Shown here: positions 3,709 to 38,502 of the stretch, in pieces
Numbering within the stretch: the stretch's first letter is position 1
Layout: every line of letters begins with the position of its first letter
Sequence record: NC_054928.1
DNA length: 64,000 bases
DNA from: Escherichia phage vB_vPM_PD112
Direction: 5' to 3' (one strand)
Translations under genes and position numbers: made by a program
The notes under the pieces: generated by a model
Told to the model about the DNA's origin: nothing
Databases searched by the model: none
Seen by the model: the letters and a program-made list of their open reading frames with translations, nothing else

Positions 3709-4911
3709 TTATTTTGTAATAATGTCAAACTGCTCTTTAAAGCAGAAGCTTGAATCTTGGTGCTGATACAAAAATTCATAAGCTTTTTCGCGTTCACGGT
3801 CATAAAGAGCTCGGTCAGATGACAGTTCTTTAATACGTTCAAATGTTGATTCCATGTCATTTTCATCAAACCAAACGATACCGCTATCGTGCGAAATTAA
3901 TGGAGTATTATCAACACGGAATTTTAAATTTTCGCCAGTAGATTTCCAAAATACTGGAATTGTTCCACATGCACCAAGCTCGAGATGAGTATATTCTAAA
4001 GAACGCTGTAGATATTTTTTATCTAATTTACTCAGCTGATAACCAAATCCGGATTTACTCATGCGTTCAAGCATTTCGCTATTTACATAACGGTCGAGAA
4101 TTTGCGTCGGCAAATTAGGAGCAATTTTAATTTGGTCTACTTGATGAAGACGATAATACTCGTATGGAATTCCTTTTTCTTTAATAGGAATGAAAGCTGG
4201 AGAACGTTCCAGACCTTCCATAATAGTACTTAGTCCTGCAGGTTTAAGATGTTTTTCGTGAAAATCAAACATCTGATAAAAGCCTTTCCATGTAGTAGTA
4301 CGACCAATCCAACGGTTGATATTCATGTTAATTTCAGAAACATCTTTCCAGTAGGTTGATCGAACCTTCGCAATATCCATAGGAGGCTGAAAGTTATATA
4401 CGGTCGGTGCTTCTTCAATATCATCAAACAGAGAAACAGTTTCCGGATACCATTCTTTCATCAAAACTTTATTAAAGTCACCATTATCAGAATGGCTAAA
4501 AATAACATCAGCTCGACGAACAGTTTCTTCTAATCCCAAATTTCGGCGTAAAGAAAGAGAAGAATGGTCATGCTGATAAACTACAACACGAACCGAAGGT
4601 TTAATGTTATCAATAATTTTTTTATAGTTATTAATAGTGTCTTCTTCTACTGAAGTAGCAGGAACTGAATTGATAATTAGAATATCACAATCATTTACCA
4701 ACTTAAGTGTTTTATCGTATTCTTTTGCCAATAAAACCGGAATTGAAAATGACTTATAATCATGCGCGCAATTACGAGTAAATGATTTATCTTTAGCATA
4801 AACCAAAGTTACTTCATGACCATTTTTAATAAACCAATCACGCTGCTCAAGAGAAAATTTAGTTACACCGCAACCTTCAAGACCTCGAGCCATAAAAATA
4901 CATGCTTTCAT
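3709..4911 (-). CDS. agt: DNA alpha-glucosyltransferase (hmC-DNA glucosylation)
   Basis: 400 aa; near-identical to recalled T4 alpha-gt sequence over its length. Confidence 0.9.
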   Translation of the reverse strand: MKACIFMARGLEGCGVTKFSLEQRDWFIKNGHEVTLVYAKDKSFTRNCAHDYKSFSIPVLLAKEYDKTLKLVNDCDILIINSVPATSVEEDTINNYKKIIDNIKPSVRVVVYQHDHSSLSLRRNLGLEETVRRADVIFSHSDNGDFNKVLMKEWYPETVSLFDDIEEAPTVYNFQPPMDIAKVRSTYWKDVSEINMNINRWIGRTTTWKGFYQMFDFHEKHLKPAGLSTIMEGLERSPAFIPIKEKGIPYEYYRLHQVDQIKIAPNLPTQILDRYVNSEMLERMSKSGFGYQLSKLDKKYLQRSLEYTHLELGACGTIPVFWKSTGENLKFRVDNTPLISHDSGIVWFDENDMESTFERIKELSSDRALYDREREKAYEFLYQHQDSSFCFKEQFDIITK

Positions 4912-5154
4912 TTAATATCCTCATTGTTTTGGTTTATTTTACCAAAAATTTATAAAGCAATATAGGAGCCGAAGCTCCTATCCACATAATACACCATACA
5001 GAGGCTCATTAGAGCTTCTAAATTTTATACGTTTATATGTTATAGTTCCTTCTGCTTTAGCTTTATCATGAGACTCTTTAAAGCGCCTCATCATTTCTAC
5101 TTTAGAGGAACGAATTTTATTATAATCTATTTCAGAAGTCTGGGTGTTCATCTT

Positions 5155-29126: not shown

Positions 29127-29447
29127 TTATTCTTTAAATCTAATCAATTTATTCATAGACTTTGAAACTTCTGCACGAACCTCATGTAGATTTTTGAGCT
29201 GTTCAAGACGCTGCTCATAGTAAGCAATTTCATCTTCTTCGAGACAGTCCTGTGAATCTTCTTTAAGATAACGTGCATAGTCCTGGAAAGCGTTACGGAC
29301 TACTTCCTGGAAGTCATCAAGACTTTGAATTTTCTTAGGAGCAACAGATACACGACGAGGGGCAGTATAATACTCATAACCAAACCCTGCACTTAATTGA
29401 GCCATTAATATTTTTCCTCTGGTTGGAACACAGCACGACAAGCCCAC
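29127..29447 (-). CDS. hypothetical protein
   Basis: ORF track. Confidence 0.45.
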
Positions 29448-29671
29448 ATACTGGCTTCTTTGAGTTTCGTTTTAGCAATAGTTAACTGATCAAGACTTTC
29501 AGCATAATTCTTCGCGAATTCACAGTCTTCACAATTATCTAACGCTTCCCAAAATTCATCATATAAAGCATCAAAGATAAGTCCTAAACGAACTTCAGCG
29601 TCTTTGATAGCATTCGCTTTACTGATTTTATCGTCAGTATGTGGCTTATAACCTTTAATGTCTTCAATCAT
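29405..29671 (-). CDS. hypothetical small acidic protein (vs.4-like position)
   Basis: ORF track; position only, no sequence-level identification. Confidence 0.45.
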
Positions 29672-29885
29672 ATTTTACTTCCTCACCTGTTCCCAAATCA
29701 TATTCAACTAAACGAATAGGTTCATGAATTCCATATCCTTGAACAGAAATTTCTGTCGTAGGATAAATTCCATCAATATCGCCCATATTCCACGCTTCAT
29801 TAAATTGCTGTTCGCCTGAATTACTAAACCACTCGGCGAAAGCATTTAGCACATCTTCAGAACCTTCAATAATTATCTTTGCCAT
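29664..29885 (-). CDS. hypothetical protein
   Basis: ORF track. Confidence 0.45.
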   Translation of the reverse strand: MAKIIIEGSEDVLNAFAEWFSNSGEQQFNEAWNMGDIDGIYPTTEISVQGYGIHEPIRLVEYDLGTGEEVKYD

Positions 29886-30247
29886 TACAAACTCTCAGTA
29901 AAGGTACGAGCAATAACGTCGCGTTGCTGTTCCGGAGTCAGAGAGTTAAAGCGAACTGCGTATCCGGATACACGGATGGTCAGCTGCGGATATTTTTCCG
30001 GATGCTTAACTGCATCTTCCAGAGTTTCACGACGCAGAACGTTTACGTTCAGGTGTTGACCACCCTCAATTTTAACTGTAGGCTGTGTTTCAATTTCAAT
30101 TTCACGGGCATGCAAACCATAGAAAATTTCTGGGTCTACAAAAGAGTCCTCTTTAAAGGTTTTAGAGACAATAATTCGTGCTTGAATACCATCTTCAAAA
30201 TAAATAGTACCTTTATGTGTGCCTTCAAGAATTTGATATGCTTTCAT
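29885..30247 (-). CDS. grcA: autonomous glycyl radical cofactor (GrcA/YfiD-like; T4 Y06I family)
   Basis: C-terminal 60 aa with RVSGYAV glycyl radical motif match recalled E. coli GrcA; 3' coding segment visibly GC-richer than surroundings. Confidence 0.85.
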
Positions 30248-30254
30248 ATAAACC

Positions 30255-30635
30255 TCAATTAGAAAATAAATTTATCCAAGATTGTTCTTTAATTAAAAAT
30301 GGCTCAGAATCATATGCCATTAAACTCTGTGTGATTAGTCCTTTAAAAGGCCCATCAATAAATTCCATGGTAAAGTATGGAATTTTATTCATTAATCTCG
30401 CATTAGGAGCAGTACATAAAACTCTGCATCCTTTGAATACGCCTTTTTGCAATTTGTATTGCTTAGGATAAAATTCGCTTAAAATGTTATTTTTTGCCAA
30501 AATTTCAAAATGATTCACCAATTTATTTTTAATAGTTTTTGGTGAAAAATAAAGATATTCGAAAAGCTGAGTGTCTGTCATCATTGCATTCCGATTACGA
30601 AAAACTGTGGACGAGTAATACCACCAATGCAGCAT
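30255..30635 (-). CDS. hypothetical protein
   Basis: ORF track. Confidence 0.45.
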
Positions 30636-31171
30636 TTACTATTGCAGCAGTGTTGCACAGTTTCAATATGAATATCGTAAATTTTATCCATATCAGGAGA
30701 TTTAACAGGCTCATCGATTATATACAAAATTCGAGAAAGCGATAAACCTCTGAACTTGCTACCTCTATTACCAACAAAACTACGGACAGAATCAGTAAAT
30801 AAACGGAATCGAATATCATCGCTAGAATAACGAGAAAATTCTTTTTTAATGCGGCCCGCAGAAATTTTAGCGTAAGCTGAAGTATTAGAAAGAACAATAA
30901 CTGTTCCACCATCATACAACCAATTAGCGGCAAAATTAGTTACTGCAGTTGATTTACCAGATTGTCTGCCACCATCTAAACGAAGTGTACAATATTCTTT
31001 AAATAAATGCGACGAATCAGGTACATAAAATCCACTATTACAAATTTCTTCTACTCTAGCATCAGAATGGTGTGTAAAAGCATTCATCAGGGATAGATAA
31101 GGACCAGTTAAAAATGTTCTCATTTTATTCTCTCTAAATTTGGGCCATTCCATGGCGCATGAATTGTCCAT
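30581..31171 (-). CDS. P-loop NTPase-like protein
   Basis: Walker A GGRQSGKST, Walker B-like ILYIIDEP; start may be internal Met (residue 17, near 31123). Confidence 0.5.
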   Translation of the reverse strand: MDNSCAMEWPKFRENKMRTFLTGPYLSLMNAFTHHSDARVEEICNSGFYVPDSSHLFKEYCTLRLDGGRQSGKSTAVTNFAANWLYDGGTVIVLSNTSAYAKISAGRIKKEFSRYSSDDIRFRLFTDSVRSFVGNRGSKFRGLSLSRILYIIDEPVKSPDMDKIYDIHIETVQHCCNSKCCIGGITRPQFFVIGMQ

Positions 31172-31264
31172 TTCTGTATTTACCCATTACCGCACTTGGG
31201 CTCGACCTTATTACAGGTTGGCGGGAATCCCTCACAGAATCATGAGGTCCAGGTTGTTCCCATG

Positions 31265-31738
31265 TTATTTGAACGATTTAACGTACTGAATAGAACCTTT
31301 ACTATTCACGAAAGCGATTTTACCATTTTTATTATACATGGTAGCAGTACGCTGATAACCATAAGTTTGTTTACCAGATTGATAACCAACTAATGCGAAA
31401 TTATCTTCACCCATTTTATTCTGTTTAGCGCGAATACGTTCATGTCCATGCGCCATAAGAACCTTAGCATCACCAGTTGCAATGGATCGACGAGTTTTTT
31501 CATCTTCAACTGTATTAACAAAATCATCAAATGAATCAAATTTAGCATGAGATTTATTATACAGTTTTCCATCTACTGCATAATTATATCCCTGTACATC
31601 CATCTCAACTTCTGTGCCATCATCTAATACAGCAGTAATTTTCTGTCCTTTTTTAAATTTCAAAAGATCAGTAAAAGATTCAGCAATAATTTGAGAATTA
31701 ATAGCTGCTTCAGTAATAAATTCTTGATATGTTTTCAT
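31265..31738 (-). CDS. internal (capsid-packaged) protein with capsid targeting sequence
   Basis: N-terminus MKTYQEFITEA matches T4 internal-protein CTS (MKTYQEFIAEA) with xxE cleavage context; lies next to e as ipIII does in T4. Confidence 0.65.
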   Translation of the reverse strand: MKTYQEFITEAAINSQIIAESFTDLLKFKKGQKITAVLDDGTEVEMDVQGYNYAVDGKLYNKSHAKFDSFDDFVNTVEDEKTRRSIATGDAKVLMAHGHERIRAKQNKMGEDNFALVGYQSGKQTYGYQRTATMYNKNGKIAFVNSKGSIQYVKSFK

Positions 31739-31781
31739 ATGTTTCCTTTAAATGTAAATATTTTAATTAGTAACTGTGAAT

Positions 31782-31811
31782 ATACTATCACAGTTCTAGG
31801 AGAAAGTAAAC
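31782..31811 (-). promoter_or_regulatory. T4-type early promoter upstream of internal protein gene
   Basis: GTTTAC ... TGATAGTAT. Confidence 0.45.
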
Positions 31812-31815
31812 AACT

Positions 31816-32346
<531 letters not shown>

Positions 32347-32802
32347 TTAAAAGAGGTTGTTCATTATTCGGTAAAGTGAAGGACCCATCACATATTGCCA
32401 CTGAGTACGAGGAATAAGAGCAAAAGCGTCCATCTCTGGAATCATAACGCCATCTTTATTTTCAAAATAAGACTCGCAATGGCAATTTCTAAACATCTCA
32501 TGCTCTACTGGAATCGTATAATAAAATAACTGTAAGTCTTTATTACTAGAATATTTAAATACACCTAGGTCTTCTAGAAGGTCTGGATTATAATTGCTAA
32601 AACCAGTCTCTTCTAAACATTCTCTTCGTGCTGCATCTAGTACGCTTAAATCAGAATTTTCTACGCGGCCCTTTGGGATATCCCAGCGATGTGCCATCAT
32701 TCCAGGCTTACGAGAACCAGTAACCCGTCCCATGAATAAATCTTTATCTTCGGTCATAAAGATAATACCAGCTGATAGTGTTTTCATTTTAATTTCCTGC
32801 AT
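32347..32802 (-). CDS. nudE: Nudix hydrolase NudE
   Basis: 151 aa; Nudix box GRVENSDLSVLDAARRECLEETGF. Confidence 0.85.
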   Translation of the reverse strand: MQEIKMKTLSAGIIFMTEDKDLFMGRVTGSRKPGMMAHRWDIPKGRVENSDLSVLDAARRECLEETGFSNYNPDLLEDLGVFKYSSNKDLQLFYYTIPVEHEMFRNCHCESYFENKDGVMIPEMDAFALIPRTQWQYVMGPSLYRIMNNLF

Positions 32803-37215: not shown

Positions 37216-37292
37216 TGGTCGAGGCAGAAGGATTCTAACCTTCAACCAACGGATTAGAAATCCGTTGCTCTATACAATTGAGCTATGCCCCG
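37216..37292 (-). tRNA. tRNA-Arg (anticodon UCU)
   Basis: Hand-folded cloverleaf; 7-bp acceptor stem with one G-U; anticodon loop TTTCTAA; encoded CCA. Confidence 0.7.
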
Positions 37293-37295
37293 TAA

Positions 37296-37961
37296 TTAAA
37301 ATTTCATTTTTCGACCTTTAAACCATCCTTCTGGAATTGGGTCAGTTTTCTTAATACGTTTAGAAACTTTTTCATCTAATGAATGAATCCACATCATGCC
37401 AAATTGGGAATTCTTTTCACCTTGTTGGTGTTTATTTCTGGCGTGAGATTCTTTCATTTTATTAATAGTTTCAGGAGTATGATGCTTATTTAAAAATCTG
37501 CTATTATTTAAAAATTTTTCCCTGTATTCAGGAGTTGACCACAAGCGTTTAAATACATTTGAACCATTTTTACGATATTTTTCTTGAAGTAAAATATCAT
37601 TTTTAAAACGTGACTTAAACGATTTAGCTCCTTTTAAACTAGCGTCTTTCTTCTGATTTAGCATCTCAGGAATATTTATATGATCCCATCCACCTTCACC
37701 GCCAAGTTTTAAATTATACACATCAGGTCTATTTAAAAACTCTTCTGTGACAATATTTTTCTCGGCTTCAAGCATAGATTCTTTATCGTCAAAATATTCT
37801 AATATTTCTTTAGAAAAATTTTCTATACCATACCTGTCTTGGGCTCTTTTTAATAATTTACCAGAACCCATATATCCATCATCTAAATTTTCGGTAGAAT
37901 GCACACCAATATAAATTTTATTATTAATTTTATTTGTTATTTTATAAGCGTAATGGAACAT
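37296..37961 (-). CDS. segB: GIY-YIG homing endonuclease SegB
   Basis: 221 aa; YAYKITNKINNKIYIGVHST GIY-YIG motif; inside tRNA cluster as in T4. Confidence 0.85.
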   Translation of the reverse strand: MFHYAYKITNKINNKIYIGVHSTENLDDGYMGSGKLLKRAQDRYGIENFSKEILEYFDDKESMLEAEKNIVTEEFLNRPDVYNLKLGGEGGWDHINIPEMLNQKKDASLKGAKSFKSRFKNDILLQEKYRKNGSNVFKRLWSTPEYREKFLNNSRFLNKHHTPETINKMKESHARNKHQQGEKNSQFGMMWIHSLDEKVSKRIKKTDPIPEGWFKGRKMKF

Positions 37962-38002
37962 AAATATCTCCTATTTCTAAGAGTATTTATGTTCCCAAAA
38001 TA

Positions 38003-38076
38003 TGACCCAGACCAGATTCGAACTGATAACCTTTCCCTTATGAGGGGACTGCTGCTAACCATTGAGCTACAGGGCC
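38003..38076 (-). tRNA. tRNA-Ile (anticodon CAU; may score as Met)
   Basis: Hand-folded; T-arm ATCAG/TTCGAAT/CTGGT; anticodon loop CTCATAA; one acceptor mismatch. Confidence 0.65.
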
Positions 38077-38082
38077 TTGATA

Positions 38083-38155
38083 TGCTGATTGACGGAATCG
38101 AACCGCCGACCTTCTCATTACAAGTGAGTTGCTCTACCTACTGAGCTAAATCAGC
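38083..38155 (-). tRNA. tRNA-Thr (anticodon UGU)
   Basis: Acceptor GCTGATT/AATCAGC; anticodon loop CTTGTAA; T-loop TTCGATT. Confidence 0.8.
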
Positions 38156-38162
38156 GAAATTA

Positions 38163-38249
38163 CGGAGGCGATAGGATTTGAACCTATGAGTCGCCGGAGC
38201 GACTGCCGGTTTTCAAGACCGGTGCATTAAACCACTCTGCCACGCCTCC
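38163..38249 (-). tRNA. tRNA-Ser (anticodon UGA), long variable arm
   Basis: Acceptor GGAGGCG/CGCCTCC; anticodon loop CTTGAAA; long extra arm; T-loop TTCAAAT. Confidence 0.8.
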
Positions 38250-38251
38250 AG

Positions 38252-38325
38252 TCTCCGTGGCAGGATTTGAACCTACGACATTCTGCTCCCAAAGCAGACG
38301 CTCTACCAAACTGAGCTACACGGAG
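38252..38325 (-). tRNA. tRNA-Pro (anticodon UGG)
   Basis: Acceptor CTCCGTG/CACGGAG; anticodon loop TTTGGGA. Confidence 0.8.
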
Positions 38326-38337
38326 TAAATTAAATTT

Positions 38338-38409
<72 letters not shown>

Positions 38410-38415
38410 AAACTT

Positions 38416-38502
38416 TGGTACGAGAAGTGGGACTCGAACCCACAAGGAAATCATTCCGCAGCATTTTAAGTGCTGTGCCTTTACCAATTTGACCATTCTC
38501 GC
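38416..38502 (-). tRNA. tRNA-Leu (anticodon UAA), long variable arm
   Basis: Acceptor GCGAGAA/TTCTCGT; anticodon loop CTTAAAA; encoded CCA. Confidence 0.8.

Follow-up and report, generated by a model that had tools for sequence, protein, structure and literature searches.

A Candidate Structured RNA Module Upstream of the T4-Type vs.8 Gene in Escherichia Phage vB_vPM_PD112

The 64,000 nt of Escherichia phage vB_vPM_PD112 analysed here (NC_054928.1, referred to as the window) contain, upstream of a P-loop gene, a conserved element that appears to be a structured RNA. The locus is best explained, with about even confidence in the reading as a whole, by an orthologue of T4 vs.8, the absence of denV and ipII, and an autonomous structured RNA module of ~106 nt in the spacer (31142–31247, minus strand). 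The element is apparently undescribed as an RNA and is annotated as part of a protein in T4. Over 1000 sequenced phages, which belong to three or more unrelated families, carry its motif; among them is the best-studied phage genome, where the element has no RNA annotation.

Identification of vs.8

The genes and start signals at the locus are as follows.

30255–30584, minus strand: vs.7, 109 aa from MMTDTQ, overlapping the stop of vs.8 and 100% identical to T4 Vs.7
30581–31123, minus strand: coding sequence of vs.8 (180 aa and a stop codon), Walker A LDGGRQSGKS, Walker B ILYIIDEP
31121–31134, minus strand: Shine–Dalgarno-like GAGAG and likely true vs.8 start ATG (31123–31121), from the alignment of homologue N-termini
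31124–31171, minus strand: in-frame upstream extension giving 196 codons, probably untranslated, its ATG (31171–31169) lying within the conserved RNA word AUGGAC
31265–31738, minus strand: internal virion protein gene of the DUF7412 'Ip4' type (Pfam DUF7412, E = 6e-96; PHROG 3155)

The original prediction described a 196-codon ORF with GGRQSGKST and ILYIIDEP motifs as a P-loop NTPase located where denV and ipII were expected. The ORF is present (30581–31171, minus strand), and it does not stand in for those genes, since T4 Vs.8 aligned with the whole protein at 82% amino acid identity (tblastn against the window, E = 2e-107) and the gene order is the same. The ORF also matched PHROG 1488, the T4 Vs.8 family, with E = 7e-78, and it lies directly upstream of vs.7 and vs.6 in an early transcription unit with the order vs.6-vs.7-vs.8, as in T4. 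A standard T4 gene had been named beforehand as the outcome that speaks against the prediction, and this is what the ORF turned out to be: judged from its sequence, it is the orthologue of T4 vs.8 (NP_049732), in itself an ordinary gene. T4 vs.8 is known to give an early RNA and an early protein (PMC9697503 supplements).

The predicted length of 196 codons was over-extended, as the conserved N-terminus of the family begins at the ATG at 31123. The motif M[KR]TFLT.PYLSLMNAF was conserved in 22 Vs.8 homologues, whose lengths are mostly 173–181 aa and whose alignment begins at MRTFLT. The real start is most likely ATG 31123, giving 180 aa, and a likely start codon is thereby corrected in T4 and in many RefSeq records.

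The assignment as a P-loop NTPase was borne out by the homologues and by structure prediction. GGRQSGK[ST] (Walker A) was invariant and I(I/V)DEP (Walker B) nearly invariant in the 22 homologues, in agreement with the patterns GxxxxGK[ST] and hhhhDE of P-loop NTPases of the ASCE type, and the AlphaFold model (pLDDT 85, pTM 0.85) showed a RecA-like α/β fold. The best Foldseek matches were helicase domain 1 and the terminase ATPase domain, with probability 0.99–1.0 at a modest TM-score of about 0.4–0.48, and weak profile matches were obtained with Terminase_6N and PHROG 2. A second RecA-like domain or a nuclease domain, as in SF1/SF2 helicases and large terminases, was absent from the 180-aa, one-domain protein. 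Vs.8 is thus predicted, from motifs and model, to be a single-domain ASCE P-loop ATPase with a helicase/terminase-like fold. Small single-domain relatives occur in many large phages.

Absence of denV and ipII

The statement that denV and ipII are unrecognisable in the window held. The best tblastn match of T4 DenV in the 64 kb had E = 1.5, and none of the eight ORFs scanned with Pfam between regB and the internal-protein gene matched the DenV/pyrimidine-dimer glycosylase family. The gene upstream of vs.8, which had been taken as ipIII, is instead the DUF7412 internal protein, annotated as Ip4 in phage SA20RB, and it occupies the place of T4 denV-ipII-ipIII. By tblastn, T4 IPII matched only its N-terminal region (residues 1–75, 33% identity, E = 2e-4) and T4 IPIII only residues 1–13, in which the capsid-targeting peptide lies (E = 0.02); similarity to IPII or IPIII beyond this N-terminal targeting peptide was not found in the DUF7412 gene. 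On this evidence, the locus simply lacks denV and ipII, and an Ip4-type internal protein takes the place of ipIII. In T4, denV is immediately upstream of vs.8; in some close relatives it is located between e and the internal-protein gene.

Architecture of the RNA Element

The spacer (31172–31264, 93 bp) is unusually GC-rich, as had been noticed: its 49.5%, compared with 34.7% over the whole window, ranks at the 98.9th percentile among all 93-nt stretches. The inverted repeat reported in it (CCTCACAGAATCATGAGG) is present at 31230–31247, although a perfect 5-bp hairpin alone arises in 38% of spacer shuffles. Folding of the spacer, proposed as a check, gave an unremarkable energy for the single sequence (relative to shuffles, z = +0.70 for the sense and −0.76 for the antisense strand, not significant). 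Since the repeat and the GC content barely exceed chance, the reality of the element rests on comparative evidence, in which conservation and covariation agree with the structured RNA originally suggested. The parts of the element in the window are as follows.

31142–31247, minus strand: whole conserved RNA unit of the T4-like type, ~106 nt, with 5' hairpin, three-way-junction core, AUGGAC region and 3' hairpin (28 T4-like variants aligned)
31230–31247, minus strand: 5' hairpin Pa, CCUCAU[GAUUCU]GUGAGG, corresponding to the inverted repeat, with a compensatory change in L109
31175–31229, minus strand: core, covariance model R1, the only copy in the window
31219–31221, minus strand: P1 5' strand CCA, pairing with 31184–31186
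31205–31218, minus strand: P2 hairpin ACCU[GUAAUA]AGGU, its stem paired in 43/43 sequences
31190–31204, minus strand: J2/3 and short P3 hairpin, CGA-GC[CCAAGU]GC-GG, with two G-C pairs in 41–42/43
31183–31189, minus strand: J3/1 (UAA) and P1 3' strand (UGG, then G), from the alignment/structure model
31144–31156, minus strand: 3' hairpin GCC[AUGGAAU]GGC, in T4-like copies only, from the RNAalifold consensus

The three-way junction follows the 5' hairpin and has the nearly invariant core ACCUGUAAUAAGGUCGAGC…GCGGUAA. With model R1 and the cmsearch filters off, the core in the window scored 71.6 bits (E = 2e-20), and the runner-up 11.7 bits. The junction is the defining part of the element, with a covarying P1 of 3–4 bp, P2 as ACCU-GURRNA-AGGU and a short G-C P3; the joining sequences UCGA and GCGG-UAA are almost invariant, and a hairpin of variable sequence precedes the junction.

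Covariation was determined on 43 distinct core sequences (alignment A5). In this alignment 87% of the cells were paired and 7 of the 11 modelled pairs showed compensatory changes, counts which come from model-fitted alignments of related sequences, so that the apparent support is inflated. The covariation score was 0.282, compared with 0.087 ± 0.014 in shuffles (0/500 reached the observed value) and at most 0.137 in slid controls. All four modelled P1 pairs covary (counts given: AU19/UA13/CG6/UG5, CG27/GC8, CG29/GC7). P2 is almost invariant and therefore largely uninformative: its closing pair is A-U in 41/43 and G-C in 2/43 distinct sequences, the G-C form being seen by eye in three copies (L141, L161 and the second copy in L147), and its loop varies as GUAAAA, GUGAAA, GUAGAA and GUAACA. 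Support for P3 is weak; a third pair (GU, AU, CG or GC) forms in 13/43 and is unpaired in 30/43, and the degenerate second copy in L159 has a 5-bp helix at this position.

In the 5' hairpin Pa, a C-G pair is changed to U-A in L109, and U-A alternates with U·G among relatives. Pa in the window has a U·G pair, able to form only on the minus strand, and at this position each of the other lineages carries a hairpin whose sequence differs. The pairs of the 3' hairpin are invariant and thus uninformative, and a long-range helix of the 5' flank with the 3' GGCC showed no covariation. Since compensatory changes occur and the G·U pairs lie on the gene-sense strand only, the element is assigned to the RNA level.

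Searches for a Known Identity

Rfam 15 gave no match over the element in the window at E up to 10, nor over nine other core-carrying sequences at E up to 1 (L005, L006, L007, L022, L039, L046, L105, L122 and L124). No blastn match to the element was found in 5426 E. coli genomes, and among 185,579 bacterial and archaeal genomes a pattern scan yielded 39 matches, all chance or coding and without extended similarity. A match in a Mannheimia Mu-like prophage (L036 family, L078) reached 15 bits with the model and was rejected as chance. No paper in the literature contained the core sequence, and none mentioned vs.8 together with denV or bacteriophage T4.

Several derivations were also tried and rejected. 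Mimicry of 23S rRNA H44/H42 was considered for the shared GUAAUA loop and GGUCGAG…GCGG, and local alignment with the rrn operon scored no better than with shuffles. Eight-nucleotide words shared with tmRNA, such as UGAUUCUG and UCCCGCCA, did not bring the alignment with E. coli ssrA out of the shuffle range, and no tmRNA was found in the window by ARAGORN or over the element by Rfam. The word GTTTAC in RB69-type copies was discarded as a promoter, as no conserved −10 element follows it and the spacing varies. A resemblance of GUGCGGUAA and GCAAGCGG to RNase P RNA has no covariance-model support and is not claimed.

Genomic Distribution and Relation to vs.8

Matches to the 55-nt core were obtained in 1052 of 50,697 phage records, mostly outside annotated features. 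Besides T4-like phages, it was found in Vequintavirus (rV5-like), Marfavirus, the N4-like phage Pylas and several metagenomic lineages, and this conservation indicates strong purifying selection on the element in phage families that are unrelated to one another. The core of the rV5-like phages, Pylas, L039, L046, L105 and L122 sits within a tRNA cluster or adjoins one, with the same orientation; in the window, the element is ~6 kb from the tRNA cluster. Tandem duplicated copies occur in L042, L118 and L147. The tRNA-cluster setting, these duplications and a spacer free of promoters and terminators favour an autonomous unit.

The element and vs.8 are tightly linked in T4-like phages. As a cis-acting leader at the 5' end of the vs.8 message, binding a protein, a metabolite or the ribosome, the element could set translation or stability of that message, and elsewhere the same structure would regulate the downstream feature. 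The core stands upstream of vs.8 in 34/35 T4-like loci, down to 36–43% Vs.8 protein identity, at a narrow distance of 61–71 nt from the core end to the vs.8 ATG, and this linkage fits a leader at least as well as an autonomous RNA. In addition, the conserved 3' hairpin shows an AGGAA loop ~20 nt before the Shine–Dalgarno sequence, and Vs.8 (1009 records) has nearly the same distribution as the core (1052 records). Against a leader, neither an alternative pairing of the element with the vs.8 ribosome-binding site nor a terminator was found; the Marfa phage group keeps the whole unit though an internal-protein gene separates it from vs.8; a 32-nt insertion is tolerated in L016 and L028; in L046, L105 and L122, tRNA genes flank the core and no ORF follows it; and in rV5-like phages the element and the ORF after it are separated by a sigma-70-like promoter. 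A regulatory leader is considered a possible explanation, at around one chance in four in our judgement of the evidence.

Another reading is an RNA-processing device, either a new small self-cleaving ribozyme or an RNase recognition structure, by which polycistronic transcripts would be cut between genes or tRNAs. The compact three-way junction, with near-invariant junctions and variable helices, follows the pattern of small ribozymes, and the element lies in co-transcribed arrays such as tRNA clusters and the early operon. Small ribozymes beside phage tRNAs have precedent in the theta/HDV-like ribozymes. However, no Rfam ribozyme family matched at E up to 10, the junctions could not be reconciled by eye with hammerhead or HDV-like cores, and no conserved cleavage-site context was identified, which leaves this reading rather unlikely.

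A DNA-level element was considered in three forms: a recombination scar of denV/ipII loss, as suggested in the original prediction, a PeSL-type cassette or a homing-endonuclease target. The locus borders a hyperplastic region in which the presence of denV and internal-protein genes varies, and PeSL cassettes, simple stem-loops with an early promoter (TTTACW-N17-TAYWAT) present in many copies per genome, are known at such borders in T4-like phages (PMC4122927). The element, however, is present in T4, which retains denV and ipII, and occurs once per genome region. It has no spacer promoter or terminator and no promoter consensus at conserved spacing, as the 32-nt insertion illustrates, and so differs from PeSLs, with a single copy in 64 kb. 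The compensatory changes and strand-specific G·U pairs indicate RNA, and the scar is contradicted by purifying selection across unrelated families; a DNA-level explanation is very improbable.

The reading given least credence, bordering on the negligible, is that the GC-rich stretch codes for an N-terminal extension of Vs.8, as in the T4 annotation (219 aa; vs.8 at 64253–64912 in the T4 record) and partly in RefSeq for the window phage (196 aa); the window matches T4 residues 1–32 at 94% identity in another frame, but there the T4 frame starts with GTG inside the hairpin and ends at TAG, only 2/33 distinct units keep the vs.8 frame open across the core, spacer length takes all three values modulo 3, 1- and 2-nt indels occur within the core, the same sequence is found without vs.8 nearby, and the conserved family N-terminus starts at MRTFLT.

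Proposed Function

In the preferred reading, an autonomous RNA module, the element would be transcribed with the early genes and would act as RNA, not as DNA or peptide. A discrete small RNA would probably be released from the polycistronic transcript or stabilised, and a conserved partner would recognise the invariant nucleotides of its loop and junctions. This partner may most likely be a host component of tRNA or translation metabolism, because the same core is found inside tRNA clusters of unrelated enterobacterial phages; in T4-like phages, the context suggests that the adjacent Vs.8 ATPase could be an additional partner.

A more specific proposal, offered tentatively as a minority expectation, is a new functional class of phage RNA, either a small ribozyme/processing module or a binder of a conserved tRNA or translation factor of enterobacteria, paired with the Vs.8 ATPase in T4-like phages. 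In this proposal the element would have gone unnoticed in T4 because it was annotated as the Vs.8 N-terminus. The two contexts, before an early ATPase gene and within tRNA arrays, lead to the hypotheses of a stable small RNA, a processing element or a Vs.8 partner. If the element binds a host factor or is catalytic, it would represent a new RNA class for phage–host biology.

Comparison with Known Systems

T4 vs.8 has the same position after vs.6/vs.7 and the same Walker A and B motifs as the window gene. The two loci differ in the upstream neighbour, denV in T4 and the Ip4-type gene in the window, and in annotation, since T4 Vs.8 is given as 219 aa, reading through the RNA element, whereas the window phage and most relatives support 180 aa. 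The predicted fold is common to the RecA-like domain 1 of SF1/SF2 helicases (RecD, RadD, the helicase part of SLFN11) and to the large terminase ATPase, but Vs.8 carries no recognisable helicase motifs beyond Walker A and B.

The element shares with the PeSL cassettes its conservation, its non-coding nature and its place at the margin of a hyperplastic region of T4-like genomes. It differs from them as a single copy in 64 kb, with no promoter, with a covarying three-way junction and with an occurrence common to non-T4-like phages.

T4 RNA C/D, YrlA (Y-RNA-like) and tmRNA-like genes in phage tRNA clusters have a setting similar to that of the element in five or six lineages outside the T4-like phages, where the core lies among or next to tRNA genes in the same orientation. 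With a unit of ~100–150 nt the element is of the size of the small stable RNAs of phage tRNA clusters. Neither covariance models nor sequence comparison related it to YrlA, tmRNA, tRNA or an Rfam family.

Finally, three-way-junction riboswitches and ribozymes differ from the element in their junctions, which are UCGA and GCGGUAA here, and in family membership. A riboswitch would combine a conserved aptamer with an expression platform, such as a terminator or a sequestered ribosome-binding site; a conserved core is present here, and no expression platform, terminator or alternative pairing was found. In size, the element is comparable to the purine riboswitch and the hammerhead, and it has, as they do, conserved junctions together with variable helices.

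Gene order and identity of the P-loop ORF

Region 29800-32400 of the window shows 100% identity to the Tequatrovirus vB_EcoM_IME537, an Escherichia phage; its identity to many T4-like phages is 95-98%. Every gene of the region is carried on the minus strand, and the order of transcription is nudE, e, an internal virion protein gene, a 93-bp spacer, a 196-codon ORF, a 126-codon ORF, a GrcA-like gene and further genes. In the T4 reference the genes run e, ipIII, ipII, denV, vs.8, vs.7, vs.6.

Features around the spacer, in order of transcription
31816-32310, minus strand: e (lysozyme)
31265-31738, minus strand: internal virion protein gene (DUF7412, PHROG 3155; named Ip4 in one relative)
31172-31264: spacer, 93 bp, between the internal virion protein gene and the 196-codon ORF
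30581-31171, minus strand: 196-codon ORF (vs.8 homologue)

The 196-codon ORF had been proposed as a new P-loop gene occupying the position of denV and ipII. Its Walker A (GGRQSGKST) and Walker B-like (ILYIIDEP) motifs are present as described. By tblastn, T4 Vs.8 matched it with 82% identity (E = 2e-107), and T4 Vs.7 and Vs.6 matched the window with 100% and 98% identity, respectively, with the T4 order retained. The ORF is thus the standard T4 gene vs.8, which refutes the novel-gene reading on the criterion that the proposal itself had named. As predicted, neither denV nor ipII is recognizable: T4 DenV found no homologue in the window (tblastn, best E = 1.5), and IPII, like IPIII, matched only the N-terminal region of the adjacent internal-protein gene, which contains the capsid-targeting peptide. 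In addition, denV is variably present among close relatives, lying between the internal-protein gene and e in, for example, MLF4 and fPS-90 and missing from others. Since the ORF is vs.8, the gene order is that of T4 and denV is present in only some relatives, the ORF is no stand-in; denV and ipII are simply absent from a variable region.

Downstream, the vs.3 homologue (29127-29447, minus strand) is labelled "putative pyrimidine dimer DNA glycosylase" in RefSeq. No such match was found in Pfam or PHROGs and T4 DenV did not match there, so the label is probably an annotation error. The vs.4 homologue (29405-29671, minus strand) carries a Pfam Acb2/Tad1 hairpin domain (E = 5e-19), of the anti-CBASS/Thoeris nucleotide-sponge family, two genes from the GrcA-like glycyl-radical cofactor gene (vs.6, 29885-30247).

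Homologues of Vs.8 were found in 1009 records, all from T4-like phages of Enterobacterales. Most are 173-181 aa long with a common N-terminus, M(K/R)TFLT.PYLSLMNAF, which places the start of vs.8 most likely at the ATG at 31123, with GAGAG just 5', and not at the ATG at 31171. A confident AlphaFold model from 22 sequences (pLDDT 85, pTM 0.85) is similar in fold to RecA-like domain 1 of SF1/SF2 helicases (RecD, RadD, the helicase part of SLFN11) and to the ATPase domain of terminases, at TM-scores of about 0.4-0.48, and weak profile matches agree. Many large phages encode similarly small structural relatives, all uncharacterised. T4 vs.8 is early both as RNA and as protein (PMC9697503, supplements). 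The vs.8 ribosome-binding region GAGAGAAUAAAAUG (31121-31134, minus strand) is similar to GGAGAAUAAAA, the optimal sequence for RegB/S1 cleavage (PMC1702504), but reads GAGA in place of the consensus GGAG; the regB gene belongs to the same operon, 2 kb further downstream.

A three-way-junction RNA in the spacer

The GC-rich spacer with an inverted repeat was confirmed: GC content is 49.5% versus 34.7% for the window (98.9th percentile among all 93-nt windows), and the repeat lies at 31230-31247. Since 5-bp hairpins arise in 38% of spacer shuffles and the folding energy of the region is ordinary (z = +0.70, sense strand), this observation, though correct, alone shows nothing special. Neither a promoter nor a terminator was found in the spacer.

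RNAalifold on 28 T4-like variants gave a three-way junction (helices P1, P2 and P3) and a 3' hairpin. A covariance model of the 55-nt core, R1, built from 30 core variants, detected a single copy in the window (31175-31229, minus strand; 71.6 bits, E = 2e-20; runner-up 11.7 bits). Across 43 distinct core sequences, 87% of cells are paired and compensatory changes occur at 7 of 11 pairs. Double changes were observed in 46 cells versus 18.6±2.9 in shuffles, and the covariation score was 0.282 versus 0.087±0.014 (0/500 shuffles reach 0.282; slid controls at most 0.137), values obtained from model-fitted alignments of mutually related sequences in which P2 is nearly invariant.

P1 covaries in all four pairs (e.g., AU19/UA13/CG6/UG5). 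P2 is closed by A-U in 41 of the 43 sequences and by G-C in the other 2; by eye, G-C was seen in three copies (loci L141 and L161, and the second copy of L147). The P2 loop is mostly GUAAUA, with variants GUAAAA, GUGAAA, GUAGAA and GUAACA. In P3, two G-C pairs are conserved and the third is often unpaired. A hairpin always lies 5' of the junction, its sequence wholly different from lineage to lineage; among T4-like phages a C-G pair in it is exchanged for U-A, and the window copy has a U.G pair. G.U pairs occur on the gene-sense strand only, which favours an RNA over a DNA structure. Of the two readings originally offered for the spacer, structured RNA is supported by the covariation, while a DNA recombination scar is unlikely. 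As judged from sequence comparison, the spacer holds a single-copy, strand-specific three-way-junction RNA that is highly conserved, not translated as such and common to unrelated enterobacterial phages.

In two Citrobacter/Enterobacter-type phages (L016, L028), a 32-nt insertion AAGGCAAGGAGCCCAATTCGATTCTAGGAAGG separates the core from the AUGGAC region in the 3' domain of the element, so the unit tolerates insertion at this point.

Coding status of the element

The annotated T4 Vs.8 (219 aa, 64253-64912) runs through the RNA element. Its residues 1-32 align to the window spacer at 94% identity, in another frame closed by TAG. The core has 1- and 2-nt indels in some lineages, and the vs.8 frame is open across it in only 2 of the 33 distinct units of element plus vs.8, one being T4. 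The core-to-ATG distance is 61-71 nt in 31/33 units, with all three residues modulo 3 occurring; the other two are upstream tandem copies, 178 nt from the ATG. The element is also found without vs.8 nearby. On these comparisons its conservation is not protein-coding and a coding extension is unlikely. The indels, the rarely open frame and the vs.8-free copies indicate that the 219-aa T4 and 196-aa RefSeq models are most likely over-extended. In the corresponding stretch of T4 (NC_000866, about 64,790-64,940; 4778-4966 of the compared locus, L004), the 3' strand of the 5' hairpin contains the annotated vs.8 ATG, and the first 39 residues of the annotated protein are probably spurious.

Distribution and genomic context

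The 43-nt spacer centre shares 95% identity with intergenic DNA that carries no annotation in rV5-like phages (Vequintavirus EdH4) and also matches Klebsiella phage Marfa, between two internal-protein genes. The core was found in 1052 of 50,697 GenBank phage records, in most outside any annotated feature; these records include Klebsiella phage Pylas (NC_049444), which is N4-like. Pattern scans covering IMG/VR and metagenomes gave many T4-like and rV5-like copies plus new lineages (L039, L046, L105, L122, L042, L118). The element was absent from the 5426 E. coli genomes searched, and 185,579 prokaryotic genomes gave chance matches only. R1 also detected divergent copies upstream of distant vs.8 homologues (38-49 bits), the Pylas copy (47 bits) and, in L042, L118 and L147, an additional copy in tandem. 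These tandem pairs lie between denV and vs.8 in T4-like phages (L042, 9017-9183); the upstream copy has P1 CUGG/CCAG and a GUGAAA or GUAAAA P2 loop.

In other lineages the core lies on the same strand as nearby tRNA genes.

Position of the core relative to tRNA genes, same strand in all cases
L046 (metagenomic phage contig): between tRNA-Glu and tRNA-Met
L105: between tRNA-Thr and tRNA-Gly
L122: 35 nt downstream of a tRNA and 23 nt upstream of a tRNA-like gene
L039: 164 nt downstream of tRNA-Ile
Pylas: within 1 kb of non-coding DNA that follows six tRNAs
rV5-like phages: about 500-560 nt upstream of tRNA-Arg

The tRNA-like genes directly downstream of the element in L122 (3407-3475) and Pylas (L124, about 1567-1650) have good acceptor and T arms. 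ARAGORN called neither, and the Rfam tRNA model gave 26.7 bits in L122 (below the gathering score) and no match in Pylas. The unannotated Pylas stretch (about 1850-2200) contains the frame GCA AAC GAU GAU GUU GUU CUG AUG GCU GCU UAA, encoding the SsrA-tag-like ANDDVVLMAA*, T-arm-like GGUUCAACUCC and GGUUCGAUUCC sequences, and weak Rfam tmRNA matches (tmRNA_permuted 33.7 bits, E = 2e-4); ARAGORN found no tmRNA. It may be a phage-encoded tmRNA. In four rV5-like loci (L005, L022, L027, L029), (C)CCYUAGAGGGCTTGA(T/A)AGTGC, a small hairpin plus conserved word, lies upstream of the element, and in one subgroup also downstream, a possible phage-specific signal for regulation or processing. L046 (4112-4333 and 7454-9061) carries a group I intron (Rfam, 90.9 bits) and a weak YrlA (Y-RNA-like) match beside a DUF2828/DUF7788 protein, just upstream of the element-flanking tRNA genes. 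The window has seven clustered tRNA genes (37216-38502, minus strand: Arg, Met, Thr, Ser, Pro, Gly, Leu), a 710-nt gap separating Arg and Met; the RNA model found no second element copy there.

Proposed function

We infer that the element would be an autonomous functional RNA module, excised from or stabilised within polycistronic transcripts; its loop and junction nucleotides, which are invariant, would be the contact sites for a conserved partner. Its occurrence with tRNA clusters suggests a partner in tRNA or translation metabolism, and the tight vs.8 linkage in T4-like phages suggests Vs.8 as well. The main rival explanation is a cis-acting leader of vs.8, favoured by that linkage (the element lies upstream of vs.8 in 34/35 T4-like loci collected by a Vs.8 profile search, at protein identities as low as 36%) and by the conserved core-to-ATG spacing; in the Marfa group the intact unit is separated from vs.8 by an inserted internal-protein gene. 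A third possibility is a ribozyme or processing signal.

Comparison with known elements

No Rfam 15 family matched the element, and a literature search found no paper with the core sequence or treating this locus. Likenesses to 23S rRNA H44/H42 and to tmRNA, noticed by eye, were rejected, as they scored no better than shuffles. The element is apparently an undescribed RNA family, present and mis-annotated in T4 too. The secondary remark of the original prediction, on a structured intergenic element, was its interesting part. PeSL cassettes, mobile regulatory motifs known from the hyperplastic regions of T4-like phages (PMC4122927), were also considered and rejected: they are simple stem-loops with an early promoter in many copies, whereas the element, with no promoter in its spacer, is a three-way junction present in one copy in the window.
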